64,000 nucleotides of DNA from Escherichia coli (GTDB lineage: Bacteria > Pseudomonadota > Gammaproteobacteria > Enterobacterales > Enterobacteriaceae), in the NCBI RefSeq assembly GCF_044324785.1, contig NZ_CP172127.1. One strand, 5' to 3'. A program made the position numbers and the translations under genes. Under the pieces are notes generated by a model. It ran no database searches. It was given only the letters and a program-made list of their open reading frames with translations, and had not been told where the DNA came from. Each line of letters opens with the position of its first letter. Positions within the stretch are counted from its first letter, which is position 1. This document shows positions 56,944 through 64,000 of this stretch, in pieces.

Positions 56944-59133
56944 TTAGAAACGGAAGGTTGCGGTTGCAACGACCTGACGTTCTGCGCCCCAGAAGCAGCC
57001 ATAGGTCTGGAAGCAACTGGCAACATACTCACGATCGAGCAAATTGTTGACGTTCACAGCAAGGCTGGATCCCGCCATACCAAAGCGTGCCAGATCATAT
57101 TTTACAACAGCATCCATTACAGCTGCGCTACCCACTTTAAAAGTGTTCGCCGGATCACCATAGCTGGAACCAATAAAACGACCACCTGTTCCCAATGTTA
57201 AACCAGAAAGCGGCCCTTCATTGAAGGTATAATCCCCCCAGAGAGATGCCATATGCTCCGGTACTTGTTCTGGAGTTTTACCTTTGAGATTGGTGTCTTT
57301 GGTGTATTCCGCATCGGTGTAGGTATAAGAAGCCGTCAAGTTAATATTGGCATTTAACGCCGCTTTTGCTTCAAGTTCCACACCACGAGCGCGAATCTCA
57401 CCTGCCGGGACTTGCGCTAATGGGTTTGTTGGGTCTGCTGTCAGGTTATTTGTTTTCGTCAATTGATAGACTGCGCCCGTAACAACGACCGGCATATCAT
57501 TCGGAACATATTTTACGCCAGCTTCATACTGTTCACCTTTCGATGGCTTATAGGAAACGCGCGGGTTGCTCCACAGATCGAAAGCACTCGGTTCAAAGGA
57601 CTGGCTATAGCTAAAGTAAGGTGAAATACCATTATCGAATAAGTAATTTACACCACCGCGCCAGGTGAACTGATGATCATTGCGCTCAATATAACCTTCA
57701 GTCGGCGTATAAGAGTTTTCACGAACAGTGGTCGCTTGCTTAGACCAATCGTAGCGTCCCCCCAGAGTGAATACCCATTTATTCCATTCCGCCTGATCCT
57801 GAACATAAATACCTGTTTGTTTGCTTTCATTCATCTGGTATGGCTCTGCGCTACCAAATGCAAAGTATTCAGGATGGTATTTGTTATAAAGATCGATGGA
57901 TGGTGCAGATCCAAAGCTGGCATTGATATCATTGCGCATACGCATGAAGTCTACCCCTGTCAGCAAAGTATGCCCGACGTCACCTGTAGCAAACTTACTT
58001 TCAAGCTGGGTATCAACGCTAAAGTTTTGTAGACGCTCATTATCCACCACTGTCCCGCGGTTTAGGGTATGACCATCGCTGGCAATCCCTGTGCCATAAA
58101 CACTTTTCTGTGAGGTTTTCATTTCACTGAAACGCAGATTCTGACGCACGGTGAAGGTGTCATTAAAACCATGTTCAAAACTATATCCCACCATTTTCTG
58201 GTTACGGGAGTATGTATTATTCGATGCACCTTCATTGAAGTCAGTCGGTAGACGCTTACCATTAGGCAATGGCTCAACGGTCCCCTCTTTCGGCAACCAA
58301 CCGTAATAACCCGTTTCTGGTTCGTTCTGAAAATAGGACAGGAAAGTAAAATTGGTTTTGTCGTCTGGACGCCATGAGAATGATGGAGCAATGGTATAAC
58401 GCTGAGATTCAGAGTTTTTCTGCTGTTCGTTTGTTGAGCGTGCGAGGCCAGTCAAACGGTAGGAGAACTCACCGTTATCATCCAGCGCATCACTGAAATC
58501 GAATCCGGTCTGAAACAGATTATCCGTCCCCATTTTAAACTGAATTTCTTTCAGGGGTTCAGTTGTCGGACGCTTACTCACCATAGAAATAATCCCACCA
58601 GGATTACTTTTCCCATAGAGAACAGACGTCGGCCCGCGCATCAGTTCAACCCTCTCGAGCATGTAAGGATCAATCACAGCATCGTTATAAAAGTTGCCCT
58701 GAAGTTTTAGTCCATCAAGGTAATTATTTTGATTCAGACCAACAGATGAGAAACCACGAATGATAACAAAATCATATGTATTAGAAGCACCACGACTGCT
58801 AACCGTAACGCCAGGTGTATAACCTAATGCTTCTTTTACAGACTGAAATTGATGCATCTGCATCTCTTCATTTGTCACAACCGAAATAGACTGCGGCGTT
58901 TTTTCAATTGGTGTATCCGTTTTAGTCGCAGTAGCAGAGTGCTTCGCCGCAATAGTTGCAGCCGGTCCCCATGCGCTTTCTTGCGGCGCAGGTGCAGCGG
59001 TAACGGTGATAGTGTCTTCTTTCGGTTCAACCGCTGCCTGTGCATAAACAGACATGCCGCTAACCGCTGTGGCTACTACAACTGCGATTTTACGCAGTGA
59101 GTGTTTTGGCTGAGCAGTTTTGGAACGCGCCAT
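56944..59133 (-). CDS. fhuA: TonB-dependent ferrichrome outer-membrane receptor FhuA, divergent allele (729 aa)
   Basis: Signal peptide and TonB box (DTITVTA) plus C-terminal barrel end (ASCFQTYGCFWGAERQVVATATFRF) recognised; much of the intervening sequence differs from the K-12 protein as I recall it. Confidence 0.9.
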   Translation of the reverse strand: MARSKTAQPKHSLRKIAVVVATAVSGMSVYAQAAVEPKEDTITVTAAPAPQESAWGPAATIAAKHSATATKTDTPIEKTPQSISVVTNEEMQMHQFQSVKEALGYTPGVTVSSRGASNTYDFVIIRGFSSVGLNQNNYLDGLKLQGNFYNDAVIDPYMLERVELMRGPTSVLYGKSNPGGIISMVSKRPTTEPLKEIQFKMGTDNLFQTGFDFSDALDDNGEFSYRLTGLARSTNEQQKNSESQRYTIAPSFSWRPDDKTNFTFLSYFQNEPETGYYGWLPKEGTVEPLPNGKRLPTDFNEGASNNTYSRNQKMVGYSFEHGFNDTFTVRQNLRFSEMKTSQKSVYGTGIASDGHTLNRGTVVDNERLQNFSVDTQLESKFATGDVGHTLLTGVDFMRMRNDINASFGSAPSIDLYNKYHPEYFAFGSAEPYQMNESKQTGIYVQDQAEWNKWVFTLGGRYDWSKQATTVRENSYTPTEGYIERNDHQFTWRGGVNYLFDNGISPYFSYSQSFEPSAFDLWSNPRVSYKPSKGEQYEAGVKYVPNDMPVVVTGAVYQLTKTNNLTADPTNPLAQVPAGEIRARGVELEAKAALNANINLTASYTYTDAEYTKDTNLKGKTPEQVPEHMASLWGDYTFNEGPLSGLTLGTGGRFIGSSYGDPANTFKVGSAAVMDAVVKYDLARFGMAGSSLAVNVNNLLDREYVASCFQTYGCFWGAERQVVATATFRF

Positions 59134-59352: not shown

Positions 59353-61878
59353 TTAATTACTACCAAACATATCCTTGATCCAACCAGCTACACCGTCGCT
59401 GTCTTTCTGCTCTTGCTGAGCAGGTTGCTGTTGCTGCGGCTGAGAAGACTGATCAAACGGATTGCCTGACGGTTGCTGCTGCATCTCACTCTGCTGGCAC
59501 AGCGATTGCGGATCGCTGGTCCAGACCGGCAAGACACGCATACCACCGCTGCAAACAAAGTTGCCGTCGTAGTCCACGCCCATATCTGCAATATCTTCTG
59601 GCGGAACAAGATTTAGCGGCGTTGGCGTCTGGTTAGCCAGATAACGCTGATAAATCGACATTGCCCCGCTGGCTCCATACAGTTTGGTCGGCTGGTTGTT
59701 ATCACGGCCGACCCAGGTGATGGTCACCGTGCTGCCGTCAATGCCCGCAAACCAGGTATCTACGTTGTTGTTGGTAGTCCCGGTTTTTCCCGCCAGATGC
59801 AGATTTGGATATTTCGCCCCAAGCTGACGCCCCGTACCACGTTGTACCACCTGCTGCATGGTCCATAGTGTCAGATACGCCGCCTGCGCCGGAACAGCGC
59901 GTTCTGCCTGCGGGAAGCTCTGATACAGCACCTTGCCATCTTCCGCGATTACCGAACGCAGCGCAGAAAGCGGAGCACGGTTACCGCCGCTGGCGATGGT
60001 CTGGAATGCCTGCGCCACTTCGATTGGCGTTAAGTTCAACGCCCCCAGCAGCATCGCCGGAACCGGATGCAGCTGATCTTTCGGTACGCCCAGTTTAATC
60101 CAGGTCTCCGTAACCGCAGGCAGCCCCAGCGCCATCCCCAGATTTACCGTCGGCACGTTCATCGAACGGGTCAACGCATCCACCAGCATCACTCTGCCGC
60201 TTTCGCTATAACGACGGTCATCGTTCTGCGGTGACCAGACCTGGCCATTTGGCTGACGCAGCGCGATTGGCGCATCCGCAATCCACGTATTCAGACGATA
60301 GATTTTCGGCTGGCTTAAAGCCGTCAGATAAGTCGCTGGTTTTGCAAGGGAACCAATCGAACGACGCGCCTGCATCGCACGGTTGTAGCCCGCAAACTGC
60401 GGCTCAGAACCACCGACCATCGCACGAACTTCACCGCTAAAGCGGTCAACAACCACAATCGCGGTTTCAAGATCGCTCAACTTACGCTGTTTCTTCAGTG
60501 CCGGAATGCCTTCCACGGCGGCTTTTTCTGCCGCGTCCTGGGCCACCGAGTCAAAGGTAGTGAAGATCTTCACGCCGGAGAGATCTTTTACCTTATCGCC
60601 TAATTTCGCCTGCAGCTCCTGACGCACCAGTTGCATAAAGGCTGGCTGAGGAGAGATCACCCCACCGCGCGGCTGAACACCCAGCGGACGTGCACTCAAC
60701 ATATCATAGAGTTCTTGATCAATAATCTGTTGCTGTTGCAGCAAACGTAGCACCAGGTTACGTCGCTCCAGCGCCAGTTTCGGGTTACGCCACGGGTTGT
60801 AGATGGACGCCCCTTTAACCATACCCACCAACAGCGCCTGCTGATCGAGGCTCAATTCTTCTACCGGACGACCAAAGTAATACAAGCTCGCCAGCGGGAA
60901 GCCGCGGATTTCGTTGTCGCCGCTCTGACCGAGATACACCTCGTTCATATACAGCTCAAGAATACGGTCTTTGCTGTAACGCGCGTCCATGATCAGCGCC
61001 ATGTAAGCTTCGTTCGCTTTACGCCAGTAAGAGCGCTCGCTGGAGAGGAACAGGTTTTTCACCAGCTGTTGCGTCAGCGTACTCGCACCCTGCACCGTGC
61101 GTCCGGCGGTCAGGTTTGCCAGCACCGCACGCCCAATTGAGTAGAGGCTGATCCCATCATGTTCGTAGAAATGACGGTCTTCTGTCGCCAGCAAAGTATC
61201 CACCAGCAAATCCGGGAAACCACTGCGCGGCACAAACAGACGCTGCTCACCGTTTGGCGAAGAGATCATGGTGATCAGACGCGGATCAAGACGGAAGAAA
61301 CCGAACTGACGGTTGTTCTCCATATTGACGATCGTCGCCAGATGATCGCCATCAAAGGTCAGACGTGCACGCACCTGCCCTTCTTTACTGTCCGGGAAAT
61401 CAAACGGACGGCGGATCATCTCAATGCTGTTGGCCTGCACGGTAAATTCGCCGGGACGGGTCATTTTCGACACCTGACGATACTGGGTCGCCTCCAGCAG
61501 CTTCACCATCTCGTTCTTGCTGATGGTCATGTCTGGCTCAAGGTTGACCATCCGGCCATAAACTGCCGCGGGCAGTTGCCAGACCTTACCATCAATACGG
61601 CTGCGAATTTTTTGATCGAGATAAACGCCGTAAATGGCGATCAGCACGGCAAAAACGATAGCCAGTTTTAGCAGCAGCCATAGCCAGCCGCGTTTGCCAC
61701 GAGGCTTACGCCCTTTGCCTTTGCCCTTACCTTTGCGCGGCATCGGTTCTTCATCCTCATAGTCATCATAATCGTCGTAATCATCGTCATCTTCGTAACG
61801 ACGACGGCTTACCTTTTGTTTGACCGGACGCGTCGGTTTCCCTTTGCGTCCAATTGGCTCGCGGTCATTCCCGGCCAT
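59353..61878 (-). CDS. mrcB: Penicillin-binding protein 1B
   Basis: Recognised MrcB (acidic [15 protein letters not shown] and KGKGKGKG N-terminal repeats, TM anchor, transglycosylase and transpeptidase domains); start at MAGNDREP. Confidence 0.95.
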
Positions 61879-61971
61879 GCTTTTTCTCCGCAATATTCAG
61901 GCGCAAAAGCCCGATTTTCTGTTCTTCTGTTGCAAGACAGAAGAAGATATCTCTCAAATTTACTTTGATCT

Positions 61972-64000
61972 TCACGAATACTTTTTCGTTCGTCGCGTTG
62001 GTGCTGTGTTTGCCGGGTCGTCCGGCCAGACATGTTTGGGATAACGCCCTTTCATCTCTTTTTGCACCTCACGGTACGCTCCTTTCCAGAAGGCGCTCAA
62101 ATCACGCGTGATTTGCAGCGGCCTTTGGGCAGGGGAAAGCAACTCCAGCACCAGCGGCACGCGCCCCTGAGCGATCGTCGGATTGGTGGCCTCACCAAAC
62201 ATCTCCTGCATTCTCACCGCCAGCGCGGGCGGGTTATCTTCATGATAACGAATGGCGATCCGGCTTCCCGTCGGCACAGTGTAATGCGCAGGCAATTCAC
62301 TATCCAGACGTTGCTGCATTCCCCAATCAAGTAATCCGCGTAGTGCCTGATAAATGTCGAGTGATTTCAGGCCGCGTAGTGAATGCACGCCGCTCATATG
62401 CGGCAGTAGCCACGTTTCCAGCGTCGCCAACAAACTCTCATCATCAACCGCTGGCCAGTCATATTCCGGCAACCACTTTGCGGCGCATAACAAACGCAAG
62501 CGTAGCTGTTCCGCTTCCGCCGTCCAGTTGAGCACGCTTAAACCTTTATCACGAATGCCGTTAAGCATCGCCTGATGCAACTCGTCTTCCGAGGGTTTCG
62601 CCAGCGGCTGCACTTTCACCGTCAACTGACCGATTTGCAGCCGACGCCAGGCTTTCAGCGTACCTTGCGCGTCATCCCACTCCACAGTGTCAGACTGCTG
62701 TACCAGCTGCGGACAGCGTTGTACTAACTCATCAATATCGACCGGCAGCGCCAGTAAAATCCGTGCATCCGGCGAGGCGCTGCCCTGCAATAATAACGGT
62801 GCGATCAACCATTCGTGGCGGCTTAGCGCATCGTCGGCATCGAGCATCGCCCCCATGCCGTTTGCCAGTTGATAGCGTCCATCTTGCCCACGGCGACGAG
62901 CAATGCGATCGGCATACGCCCCGGCAAGTAGCGGCGCGATAAGCGAACTGTCTGCCTCACCGCCGCGTACGTTTAAACGTTTTAACAGTTGCTGACTACG
63001 TTGCTGCCAGGCGGGTTGATTGCGCGAAAATGCCACGCCCAGGTCACAATTGCCCATCCGTGGCGGCTCTTCGAGAATAGCGGCAATTTTTGCCGCGGTA
63101 GCAGCTTCGTCGTCGCTCTTCGCGCTCACCAGCATTGCCGCTAAACGCGGATCGTTACCCAGCGCCGCCATTTTTTGCCCTTGCGCGCTTAGCCGTTCGC
63201 CATCCAGCGCTCCCAGCATCCGTAACAGGCGTTTCGCGGCCTGTAAATTCACTGCTGGCGGTTGATCCAGCCAGCTCATCTGCGCCGGATCGCTGCATCC
63301 CCATTGCAGTAATTCCATCAGCAAACCGGAAAGATCGCTTTGTAAGATCTCCGGTTCACTTTGCGCGGCAGCGCGTTCTGCTTGTTCTTTGGCGATTAAA
63401 TGCAGGCAGATACCCGGCTCCAGACGCCCGGCGCGCCCGGCACGCTGCGTCATGGATGCCTGACTAACGCGTTGAGTAATCAACCGCGTAAGCCCCGTGC
63501 GCGGATCAAAACGCGCCACACGCTCCTGGGCACAATCCACCACCAGACGAATACCTTCGATGGTTAAACTTGTTTCAGCAATATTGGTCGCCAGCACCAC
63601 TTTGCGCATTCCTTGCGGTGCCGGAAGGATCGCTTTTCGCTGATCGTTCAGCGACAACGCGCCATACAGCGGGCAGAGCAACACATCACTGCCGATGCGC
63701 GAAGCCAGTTGTTCCTGCACGCGCTGAATTTCTCCGACGCCAGGTAAAAATAACAGTAATGATCCGCTTTCCTGACGCAGCATTTCGGCGGTGGCTACCG
63801 CAACGGCTTCGTCAAAACGCTGATGCGCGGGCAGCGGTAAATAACGGCGTTCAACCGGAAACGAGCGCCCTTCTGAGATGACGACGGGCGCTTCTGGCAG
63901 CATTTGCTGCAAGCTGTCGTTGTCCAGCGTAGCCGACATAATCAGCAGTTTAAGGTCATCACGCAGACCTTGTTGCACATCGAGTAACAGCGCCAACGCC
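61972..64000 (-). CDS. hrpB: ATP-dependent RNA helicase HrpB (DEAH-box), 5'-truncated by window end
   Basis: 674-aa C-terminal portion recognised as HrpB; N-terminus lies beyond position 64000. Confidence 0.9.
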   Translation of the reverse strand, partial: ALALLLDVQQGLRDDLKLLIMSATLDNDSLQQMLPEAPVVISEGRSFPVERRYLPLPAHQRFDEAVAVATAEMLRQESGSLLLFLPGVGEIQRVQEQLASRIGSDVLLCPLYGALSLNDQRKAILPAPQGMRKVVLATNIAETSLTIEGIRLVVDCAQERVARFDPRTGLTRLITQRVSQASMTQRAGRAGRLEPGICLHLIAKEQAERAAAQSEPEILQSDLSGLLMELLQWGCSDPAQMSWLDQPPAVNLQAAKRLLRMLGALDGERLSAQGQKMAALGNDPRLAAMLVSAKSDDEAATAAKIAAILEEPPRMGNCDLGVAFSRNQPAWQQRSQQLLKRLNVRGGEADSSLIAPLLAGAYADRIARRRGQDGRYQLANGMGAMLDADDALSRHEWLIAPLLLQGSASPDARILLALPVDIDELVQRCPQLVQQSDTVEWDDAQGTLKAWRRLQIGQLTVKVQPLAKPSEDELHQAMLNGIRDKGLSVLNWTAEAEQLRLRLLCAAKWLPEYDWPAVDDESLLATLETWLLPHMSGVHSLRGLKSLDIYQALRGLLDWGMQQRLDSELPAHYTVPTGSRIAIRYHEDNPPALAVRMQEMFGEATNPTIAQGRVPLVLELLSPAQRPLQITRDLSAFWKGAYREVQKEMKGRYPKHVWPDDPANTAPTRRTKKYS

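Follow-up and report, generated by a model that had tools for sequence, protein, structure and literature searches.

Analysis of mrcB in a 64,000-nucleotide stretch of Escherichia coli DNA (the window) indicates that the repetitive sequence at positions 61690-61810, at the 5' end of the gene, very probably belongs to the known disordered tails of PBP1b, which occasionally lose a repeat unit in frame and so exist as length alleles of low frequency, and that it is not a switch. The flagged tract is ordinary: known biology with a modest slippage polymorphism. Replication slippage or microhomology deletion between short repeat units would occasionally drop one unit in frame; such losses would account for the few minority length alleles of E. 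coli and for the larger length differences between genera, with the acidic-then-basic composition and the sequence right around Met46 remaining conserved. The encoded tails would accordingly be constrained in composition and tolerant in length, and the same kind of event would have taken a 9-bp unit from a C-terminal Q/P repeat, leaving the protein of the window at 841 residues against 844. Slippage as the probable mechanism is what we infer from the structure of the alleles, as we do the near-neutrality of the length changes.

The gene, mrcB (ponB), is an 841-codon minus-strand open reading frame (Table 1) situated between hrpB (upstream) and fhuA (downstream) in the order of open reading frames of the window. 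Its product carries both the glycosyltransferase and the transpeptidase domain of a class A bifunctional PBP (Pfam Transgly, PF00912, residues 209-379, 190 bits; Transpeptidase, PF00905, residues 473-714, 87 bits), together with the markers specific to PBP1b, namely the PBP1_TM N-terminal region (PF14812, residues 1-79) and the LpoB-binding UB2H domain (PF14814, residues 113-197). Orthology with E. coli mrcB is borne out by the hrpB-mrcB-fhuA order, which the K-12 gene shares along with all four Pfam domains, and by a single mrcB-annotated match per genome: a BLAST search with the 5' region found one in each of 5,424 of 5,426 complete E. coli genomes. The cytoplasmic tail consists, in order, of the peptide of residues 1-14, a basic stretch, the acidic D/E/Y tract (residues 29-44), Met46 and the KG tract (residues 49-56), and ends at the membrane helix, which overlaps the PF14812 match in part, since that match stops at residue 79. 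Solved PBP1b structures cover only residues 53, 55 or 58 to 804, according to their PDB constructs, so both variable tails lie beyond the crystallised portion of the protein, consistent with disorder. The PBP1b gene, its two isoforms and its disordered tails are already well described.

Table 1. Features of mrcB discussed in the text, in coordinates of the window.
Feature	Position	Strand	Remarks
mrcB (ponB) CDS, PBP1b alpha form	59353-61878	minus	Single open reading frame, 841 aa plus stop
Alpha-specific N-terminal peptide, codons 1-14	61837-61878	minus	Identical to K-12; conserved across Enterobacterales fragments
Acidic D/E/Y tract, E29-E44	61747-61794	minus	16 residues; imperfect 3- and 9-bp repeats
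GATGAT doublet, D32-D33	61780-61785	minus	One GAT missing in the DDDD-to-DDD allele
TACGACGAT, 9-bp unit flanked by GATTA direct repeats	61771-61779	minus	Missing in strain CFS3292; configuration of E. coli E69 alike
Met46 ATG, internal start of the PBP1b gamma isoform	61741-61743	minus	Position from sequence
Basic KG tract, K49-G56 (AAA GGT AAG GGC AAA GGC AAA GGG)	61711-61734	minus	Translation
GGCAAAGGCAAAGG, sole perfect tandem within the KG tract	61712-61725	minus	One GGCAAA missing in KG x3 alleles
Hydrophobic membrane-spanning segment, about residues 64-87	61618-61689	minus	Boundaries approximate, predicted from sequence
C-terminal Q/P tract, residues 813-824	59407-59442	minus	12 residues; site of the 3-aa deficit of the window
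C-terminal tail, residues 805-841	59356-59466	minus	Outside all solved PBP1b structures

Translation of PBP1b in E. coli begins either at Met1, giving the alpha isoform, or 46 codons further on, giving the gamma isoform (PMC13423804, after Kato 1984 and Broome-Smith 1985). The window has this dual-start layout: codon 46, which lies between the acidic and the basic tract, is an ATG in frame. The intrinsically disordered cytoplasmic N-terminus specific to the alpha form recruits PBP1b to the division site, probably by contact of its first residues (R6, P8-R11) with FtsA, and the first 14 residues are the part of it that is conserved within Enterobacteriaceae (PMC13423804, 2026). The conserved peptide as printed in that study (residues 1-14, including R6, P8, I9, G10 and R11) is present in the window. 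With the FtsA peptide on their N-terminal side and the membrane helix on their C-terminal side, the flagged tracts form the linker between the two and straddle the gamma start.

A sequence-only reading of the window had described an acidic stretch followed by KGKGKGKG, encoded on the minus strand at the 5' end of mrcB by short reiterated DNA motifs. Both tracts are encoded there in that order, together occupying 61711-61794 and lying wholly inside the flagged interval, but they are not adjacent, as P-M-P-R intervenes. The reiterated motifs are present as well: on the plus strand, CCTTTGCC occurs as two overlapping copies (61712-61719 and 61718-61725), and ATCATCGTC occurs at 61780-61788 with a copy bearing one mismatch at 61768-61776. 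The first 241 nucleotides of mrcB in the window align with K-12 at equal length with one synonymous SNP and an identical protein, and the N-terminal 60 residues, comprising the FtsA-binding peptide, the acidic tract, Met46 and KG x4, are those of K-12. The window carries the majority, K-12-type state of both N-terminal tracts.

The claim that such tracts commonly vary in copy number between strains was examined by aligning mrcB 5' ends, with the 241-nt 5' region of the window (61640-61880) as the query against 5,424 complete E. coli genomes. Alleles were counted by BLAST identity band, with a cut-off of at least 99% across about 240 nt, rather than by per-genome extraction, and because collections of complete genomes are clonally biased the percentages are not population frequencies. 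Copy number does differ between strains, by loss of GAT, of GGCAAA, of both or of a DDY unit; with these four in-frame deletion alleles found, the tract is not of identical length in all strains, but variation is confined to about 6% of the 5,424 genomes (about 327 with an in-frame N-terminal contraction) and so is less common than had been claimed. The reference-length N-terminus was matched over the same span at 99% identity or more in 5,086 genomes (about 94%), and the other 338 fell in the 95-99% band. Variant alleles were taken from the tail of the BLAST ranking, fetched, aligned and used as queries in their turn: at 99% identity or more, loss of GAT (DDDD to DDD) was matched in 180 genomes, loss of GGCAAA (KG x4 to x3) in 131, and the double loss of GAT and GGCAAA in 11. 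A 9-bp deletion of TACGACGAT, which removes one DDY unit between GATTA direct repeats, was found in about five genomes, including that of strain CFS3292; these fell in the 90-95% band of searches with contracted alleles as queries. Together these classes cover about 5,413 of the 5,424 genomes, and rare expansions could hide among the up to 16 that are unclassified.

Every indel seen coincides with a direct repeat and has a length that is a multiple of three, each N-terminal length difference removing one unit; all 12 of the variant alleles fetched are in frame, with an intact annotated CDS of 840-844 aa. Between strains, length differences map to whole repeat units, these being GAT, GGCAAA and TACGACGAT at the N-terminus and GCAACAGCC or 12 bp at the C-terminus. 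No expansion allele was present in any sampled row or examined record, and no frameshift allele among the variant alleles examined. The search for expansions led to the record ranked weakest against the KG x3 query, which proved to be the 9-bp DDY-unit contraction of CFS3292. In the alignments at least three SNP backgrounds carry the GGCAAA loss and at least two the GAT loss, a recurrence of the same deletion that fits recurrent slippage and that intragenic recombination could also account for. A literature search on mrcB repeat polymorphism found two incidental mentions and, among the papers covered, no description of it.

Comparison with other species relied on representatives retrieved with a degenerate pattern matching the DNA of the first 23 mrcB codons, and, between genera, on a protein database search with the N-terminal 139 residues, which returned only short fragment proteins and was not used for counting. 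Escherichia albertii matches K-12 in the configuration of all three repeats and has a protein of 844 aa; a K-12-type N-terminus is also found in E. whittamii and in Escherichia sp. E1V33, the latter with the 12-bp-shorter C-terminus. Both E. albertii and E. whittamii share the KG x4 state with most E. coli. In SCPM-O-B-8794 and E69, two GTDB species representatives with records titled E. coli, the acidic tract is shorter and the KG state is x3, and KG x3 is also the state of Citrobacter and of one Salmonella fragment, in which the D/E/Y tracts are arranged differently. Acidic tracts are much longer in Yersinia, Serratia and others. The architecture is nevertheless constant across genera (N-peptide, basic stretch, acidic tract, (E)EPMPRK, basic tract, membrane helix), and one 15-residue segment stays conserved while the acidic tract and the KG count vary. 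Low-complexity disordered linkers and tails of bacterial envelope and division proteins keep their composition as their length drifts by in-frame indels. The tails of MrcB are like this class in their retained composition and in their absence from crystal structures, but the linker additionally holds the internal start Met46, whose surroundings are conserved even synonymously.

This last feature bears on the proposal that linker length is functionally tuned, in which the length of the acidic/KG linker would shift the alpha:gamma ratio through initiation at Met46, or change how far the tether reaches or what charge it carries, so that lineages would differ in septal reinforcement by PBP1b. The acidic codons do lie directly upstream of the gamma start, with the variable part (D30-Y40) 15-48 nt before the ATG, and the alpha-specific N-terminus is functionally important (PMC13423804). 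The Met46 ATG is kept in all Escherichia and Citrobacter loci compared, and synonymous variation across these two genera is almost absent from codons 39-47, a hint of possible mRNA-level constraint at the internal start. Yet the changes amount to one to three residues, the immediate surroundings of Met46 are unchanged in all alleles, and the tract varies far more between genera with its architecture kept. RNA folding at the gamma start (61701-61800, minus strand) gave a minimum free energy of -19.4 kcal/mol, like that of shuffled sequences (z = -0.67), the GAGG that lies about 11 nt before the ATG would be no more than a weak candidate Shine-Dalgarno sequence, and a crude promoter and terminator scan of 61500-62100 found none, with no sign of a gamma-specific internal promoter. 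Functional tuning of this kind is unlikely, and it is quite improbable that the particular linker alleles (DDDD versus DDD, loss of DDY, KG x4 versus x3) are non-neutral and tune the alpha:gamma ratio or the geometry of the tether. Were they to do so, lineages would differ in septal peptidoglycan reinforcement and in osmotic or beta-lactam tolerance.

The second proposal, that mrcB is a contingency (phase-variable) locus in which frequent repeat changes would be an adaptive means of turning PBP1b, or its alpha isoform, on and off or of moving it between states, draws on the presence of tandem repeats in a coding region and on the fact that strains differ in copy number precisely at those repeat units. 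In these respects mrcB resembles the contingency loci of Haemophilus, Neisseria and Campylobacter, in which coding tandem repeats change by slipped-strand mispairing; those loci, however, have long perfect tracts, made of units whose gain or loss alters the reading frame or the spacing of the promoter, and switch at high rates. Tandem Repeats in mrcB are short and imperfect, in units of 3, 6 and 9 bp, because the encoded peptide is repetitive. When TRF was run at a permissive threshold, which gave 11 rows across the whole 64-kb window, it reported a period-6 array at 61712-61736 (4.2 copies, score 36) and period-9/18 arrays at 61751-61798 (scores 44 for period 9 and 54 for period 18). These mrcB arrays are the only ones in the window with four or more copies, and include its top scores, but are weak in absolute terms, with matches of 76-78%. 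The longest perfect tandems are GATGAT(+1), 7 nt at period 3, and GGCAAAGGCAAAGG, 14 nt at period 6, each of two units at most, so that slippage rates should be low.

Nor do the codons appear to have been chosen for repetitiveness. In a synonymous recoding test (post hoc and one-sided, with codons drawn from the usage of three large nearby open reading frames), the 14-nt tandem of the KG tract was unremarkable, being equalled or exceeded by 43% of recodings. The 7-nt tandem of the acidic tract fell below a simulated mean of about 15 nt, and the tract was less repetitive than 97% of recodings (about 3% were as non-repetitive), the opposite of what is expected of a tract selected for mutability; if anything, the acidic tract is codon-scrambled. 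With units all of 3, 6, 9 or 12 bp, every allele seen in frame with an intact CDS, no off alleles and one length in 94% of the 5,424 genomes, a contingency locus is very unlikely. Slippage-prone is a relative description of the tract and overstates the case, as no perfect repeat exceeds two units and every change seen keeps the reading frame.

It is also very doubtful that sequencing or assembly artefacts in low-complexity DNA explain the length differences: although some assemblies made from long reads only contain indel errors, to which low-complexity regions are prone, the indels here are whole repeat units in multiples of three, the alleles are shared by between 11 and 180 independent genomes and go together with particular SNPs, and they are present in the species representatives E69 and SCPM-O-B-8794 and in the Sanger-era sequences of APEC O78 and BL21-Gold.

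In-frame loss of a repeat unit, the reading preferred here, extends to a third repeat of mrcB, in the C-terminal Q/P tract about 2.3 kb from the flagged tracts. The sequence-only reading was correct that the 841-aa open reading frame falls a few residues short of the reference, as mrcB of K-12 MG1655 comprises 2535 nt and encodes 844 aa, but its implication that the flagged tracts are responsible fails. In the full-length alignment with K-12 the only gap is of 9 bp (alignment columns 2445-2453), corresponding to Q816-P818 at the C-terminus; the genes differ by 69 SNPs, mostly synonymous, and the proteins by I782V and the absence of Q816-P818, with nothing else. The deficit is a contraction by one 9-bp unit of a GCAACAGCN x2 repeat, with its junction at 59435/59434. 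The K-12 sequence, CCGCA[GCAACAGCC]GCAACAGCAACC, has a two-unit 9-bp tandem in which eight of nine bases are identical, and the window lacks one unit (GCAACAGCC) of this GCAACAGCC-GCAACAGCA tandem.

With the K-12 allele as the query, the C-terminus is of K-12 length in 4,649 of the 5,424 genomes (85.7%) and shorter in 775 (14.3%); the shorter set splits into two identity bands of 208 and 567 genomes, placing the contraction on at least two SNP backgrounds. An allele shorter by 12 bp is found in at least 26 genomes (about 30), including APEC O78. The 9-bp contraction and the length of 841 aa are shared by MrcB of ST131 and of native E. coli B (BL21-Gold(DE3)); the ST131 gene is identical to that of the window in its 5' region and yet has 92 SNPs and three amino-acid changes elsewhere. 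The same total of 841 aa is reached through the N-terminal loss of GAT plus GGCAAA in LR14 and through loss of the N-terminal DDY unit in CFS3292, making at least three routes, so that length alone cannot tell which tract has changed. These two strains lend contraction of the flagged N-terminal tracts some initial appeal as the source of the 841 aa in the window, but, as the 5' 241 nt of the window are of K-12 length with an identical protein and the sole gap is at Q816-P818, this explanation is almost certainly wrong. A suspicion that short length reflects the flagged tracts is reasonable in general and mistaken for this window.

A laboratory-evolution study reported enrichment of an mrcB 'Q817 frameshift' (PMC12798971), which falls in the C-terminal repeat and suggests that the site is mutable or open to ambiguity in variant calling. 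Three short repeats, each independent of the others, determine the total length of MrcB (840-844 aa), and the natural absence of Q816-P818, relative to K-12, from common strains that include ST131 and native E. coli B matters for residue numbering and variant calling. The natural linker-length alleles are ready-made variants for asking whether the length of the PBP1b linker matters.

No close relative of the window was found in the E. coli complete-genome set (5,424 genomes) when positions 30000-54000 and the mrcB gene (59353-61878) were compared: the top identity was approximately 98.1% over the 24 kb of the former and 98.2% for mrcB, which is 34 SNPs from that of strain N3. Despite this distance at the DNA level, the encoded MrcB protein is nearly identical to that of K-12. 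Other Escherichia species are 92-94% identical to the window. Placed by these identities, the window is clearly assignable to E. coli, and its source is read as either a poorly represented lineage or a group left out of the collection, such as Shigella.

Within mrcB, a single codon is used at eight of the nine positions from D39 to P47, around the internal start (Met46) of the PBP1b gamma isoform, in 12 Escherichia and Citrobacter sequences; the membrane-helix codons of the same 12 sequences use two to three codons at most positions. The low codon diversity at D39-P47 may indicate constraint on the internal translation-initiation region. At the other end of the gene, an enriched mrcB 'Q817 frameshift' was given in a phage-host evolution experiment (PMC12798971); Q817 lies within the C-terminal QQQP repeat, which is one unit shorter in the window, and the frameshift could be true slippage or a repeat-caused effect of variant calling.

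Features of the window by position
Feature	Position	Strand	Remark
fhuA	56944-59133	-	729 aa encoded
mrcB C-terminal QQQP repeat	59407-59442	-	
mrcB codons 39-47 (D39-P47), around gamma start	61717-61761	-	codon comparison, 12 sequences
hrpB-mrcB spacer	61879-61971	-	inverted repeat CTTCTTCTGT-cttgca-ACAGAAGAAC

The inverted repeat of the hrpB-mrcB spacer drew no terminator call in a scan of 61500-62100. In K-12 resequencing, an 'hrpB // mrcB repeat' was named as a cause of a contig break at MG1655 164580-164596 (PMC3045373).

In the genome collection (ecoli_genomes), three mrcB matches are on plasmid-labelled records, two of the 5,426 genomes have no match, and strain H1 (NZ_CP010160.1) has the C-terminal region in two separate places, with 78% coverage. 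These cases may represent mislabelled replicons, deletion, or insertion in the tail.

BL21-Gold(DE3) (NC_012947.1) has an 841-aa mrcB with the -9 C-terminal allele (a 9-bp contraction removing Q816-P818); NZ_CP053601.1 ('E. coli BL21') encodes the exact 844-aa K-12 protein WP_000918162.1, and its adjoining fhuA is interrupted by IS2. It looks as though a K-12 fhuA::IS2 (T1-resistance) marker was transferred into B along with the neighbouring K-12 mrcB.

The fhuA of the window is a strongly divergent allele, with many substitutions relative to the K-12 FhuA structures 8a60 and 1by3, a 17-residue gap at the site of K-12 PANAYSKQCAALAPADK, and smaller indels further along. The PANAYSKQCAALAPADK segment presumably lies in a surface loop with an implied role in the binding of phages and colicins, and the divergent allele has probably altered the phage and colicin receptor properties of FhuA.
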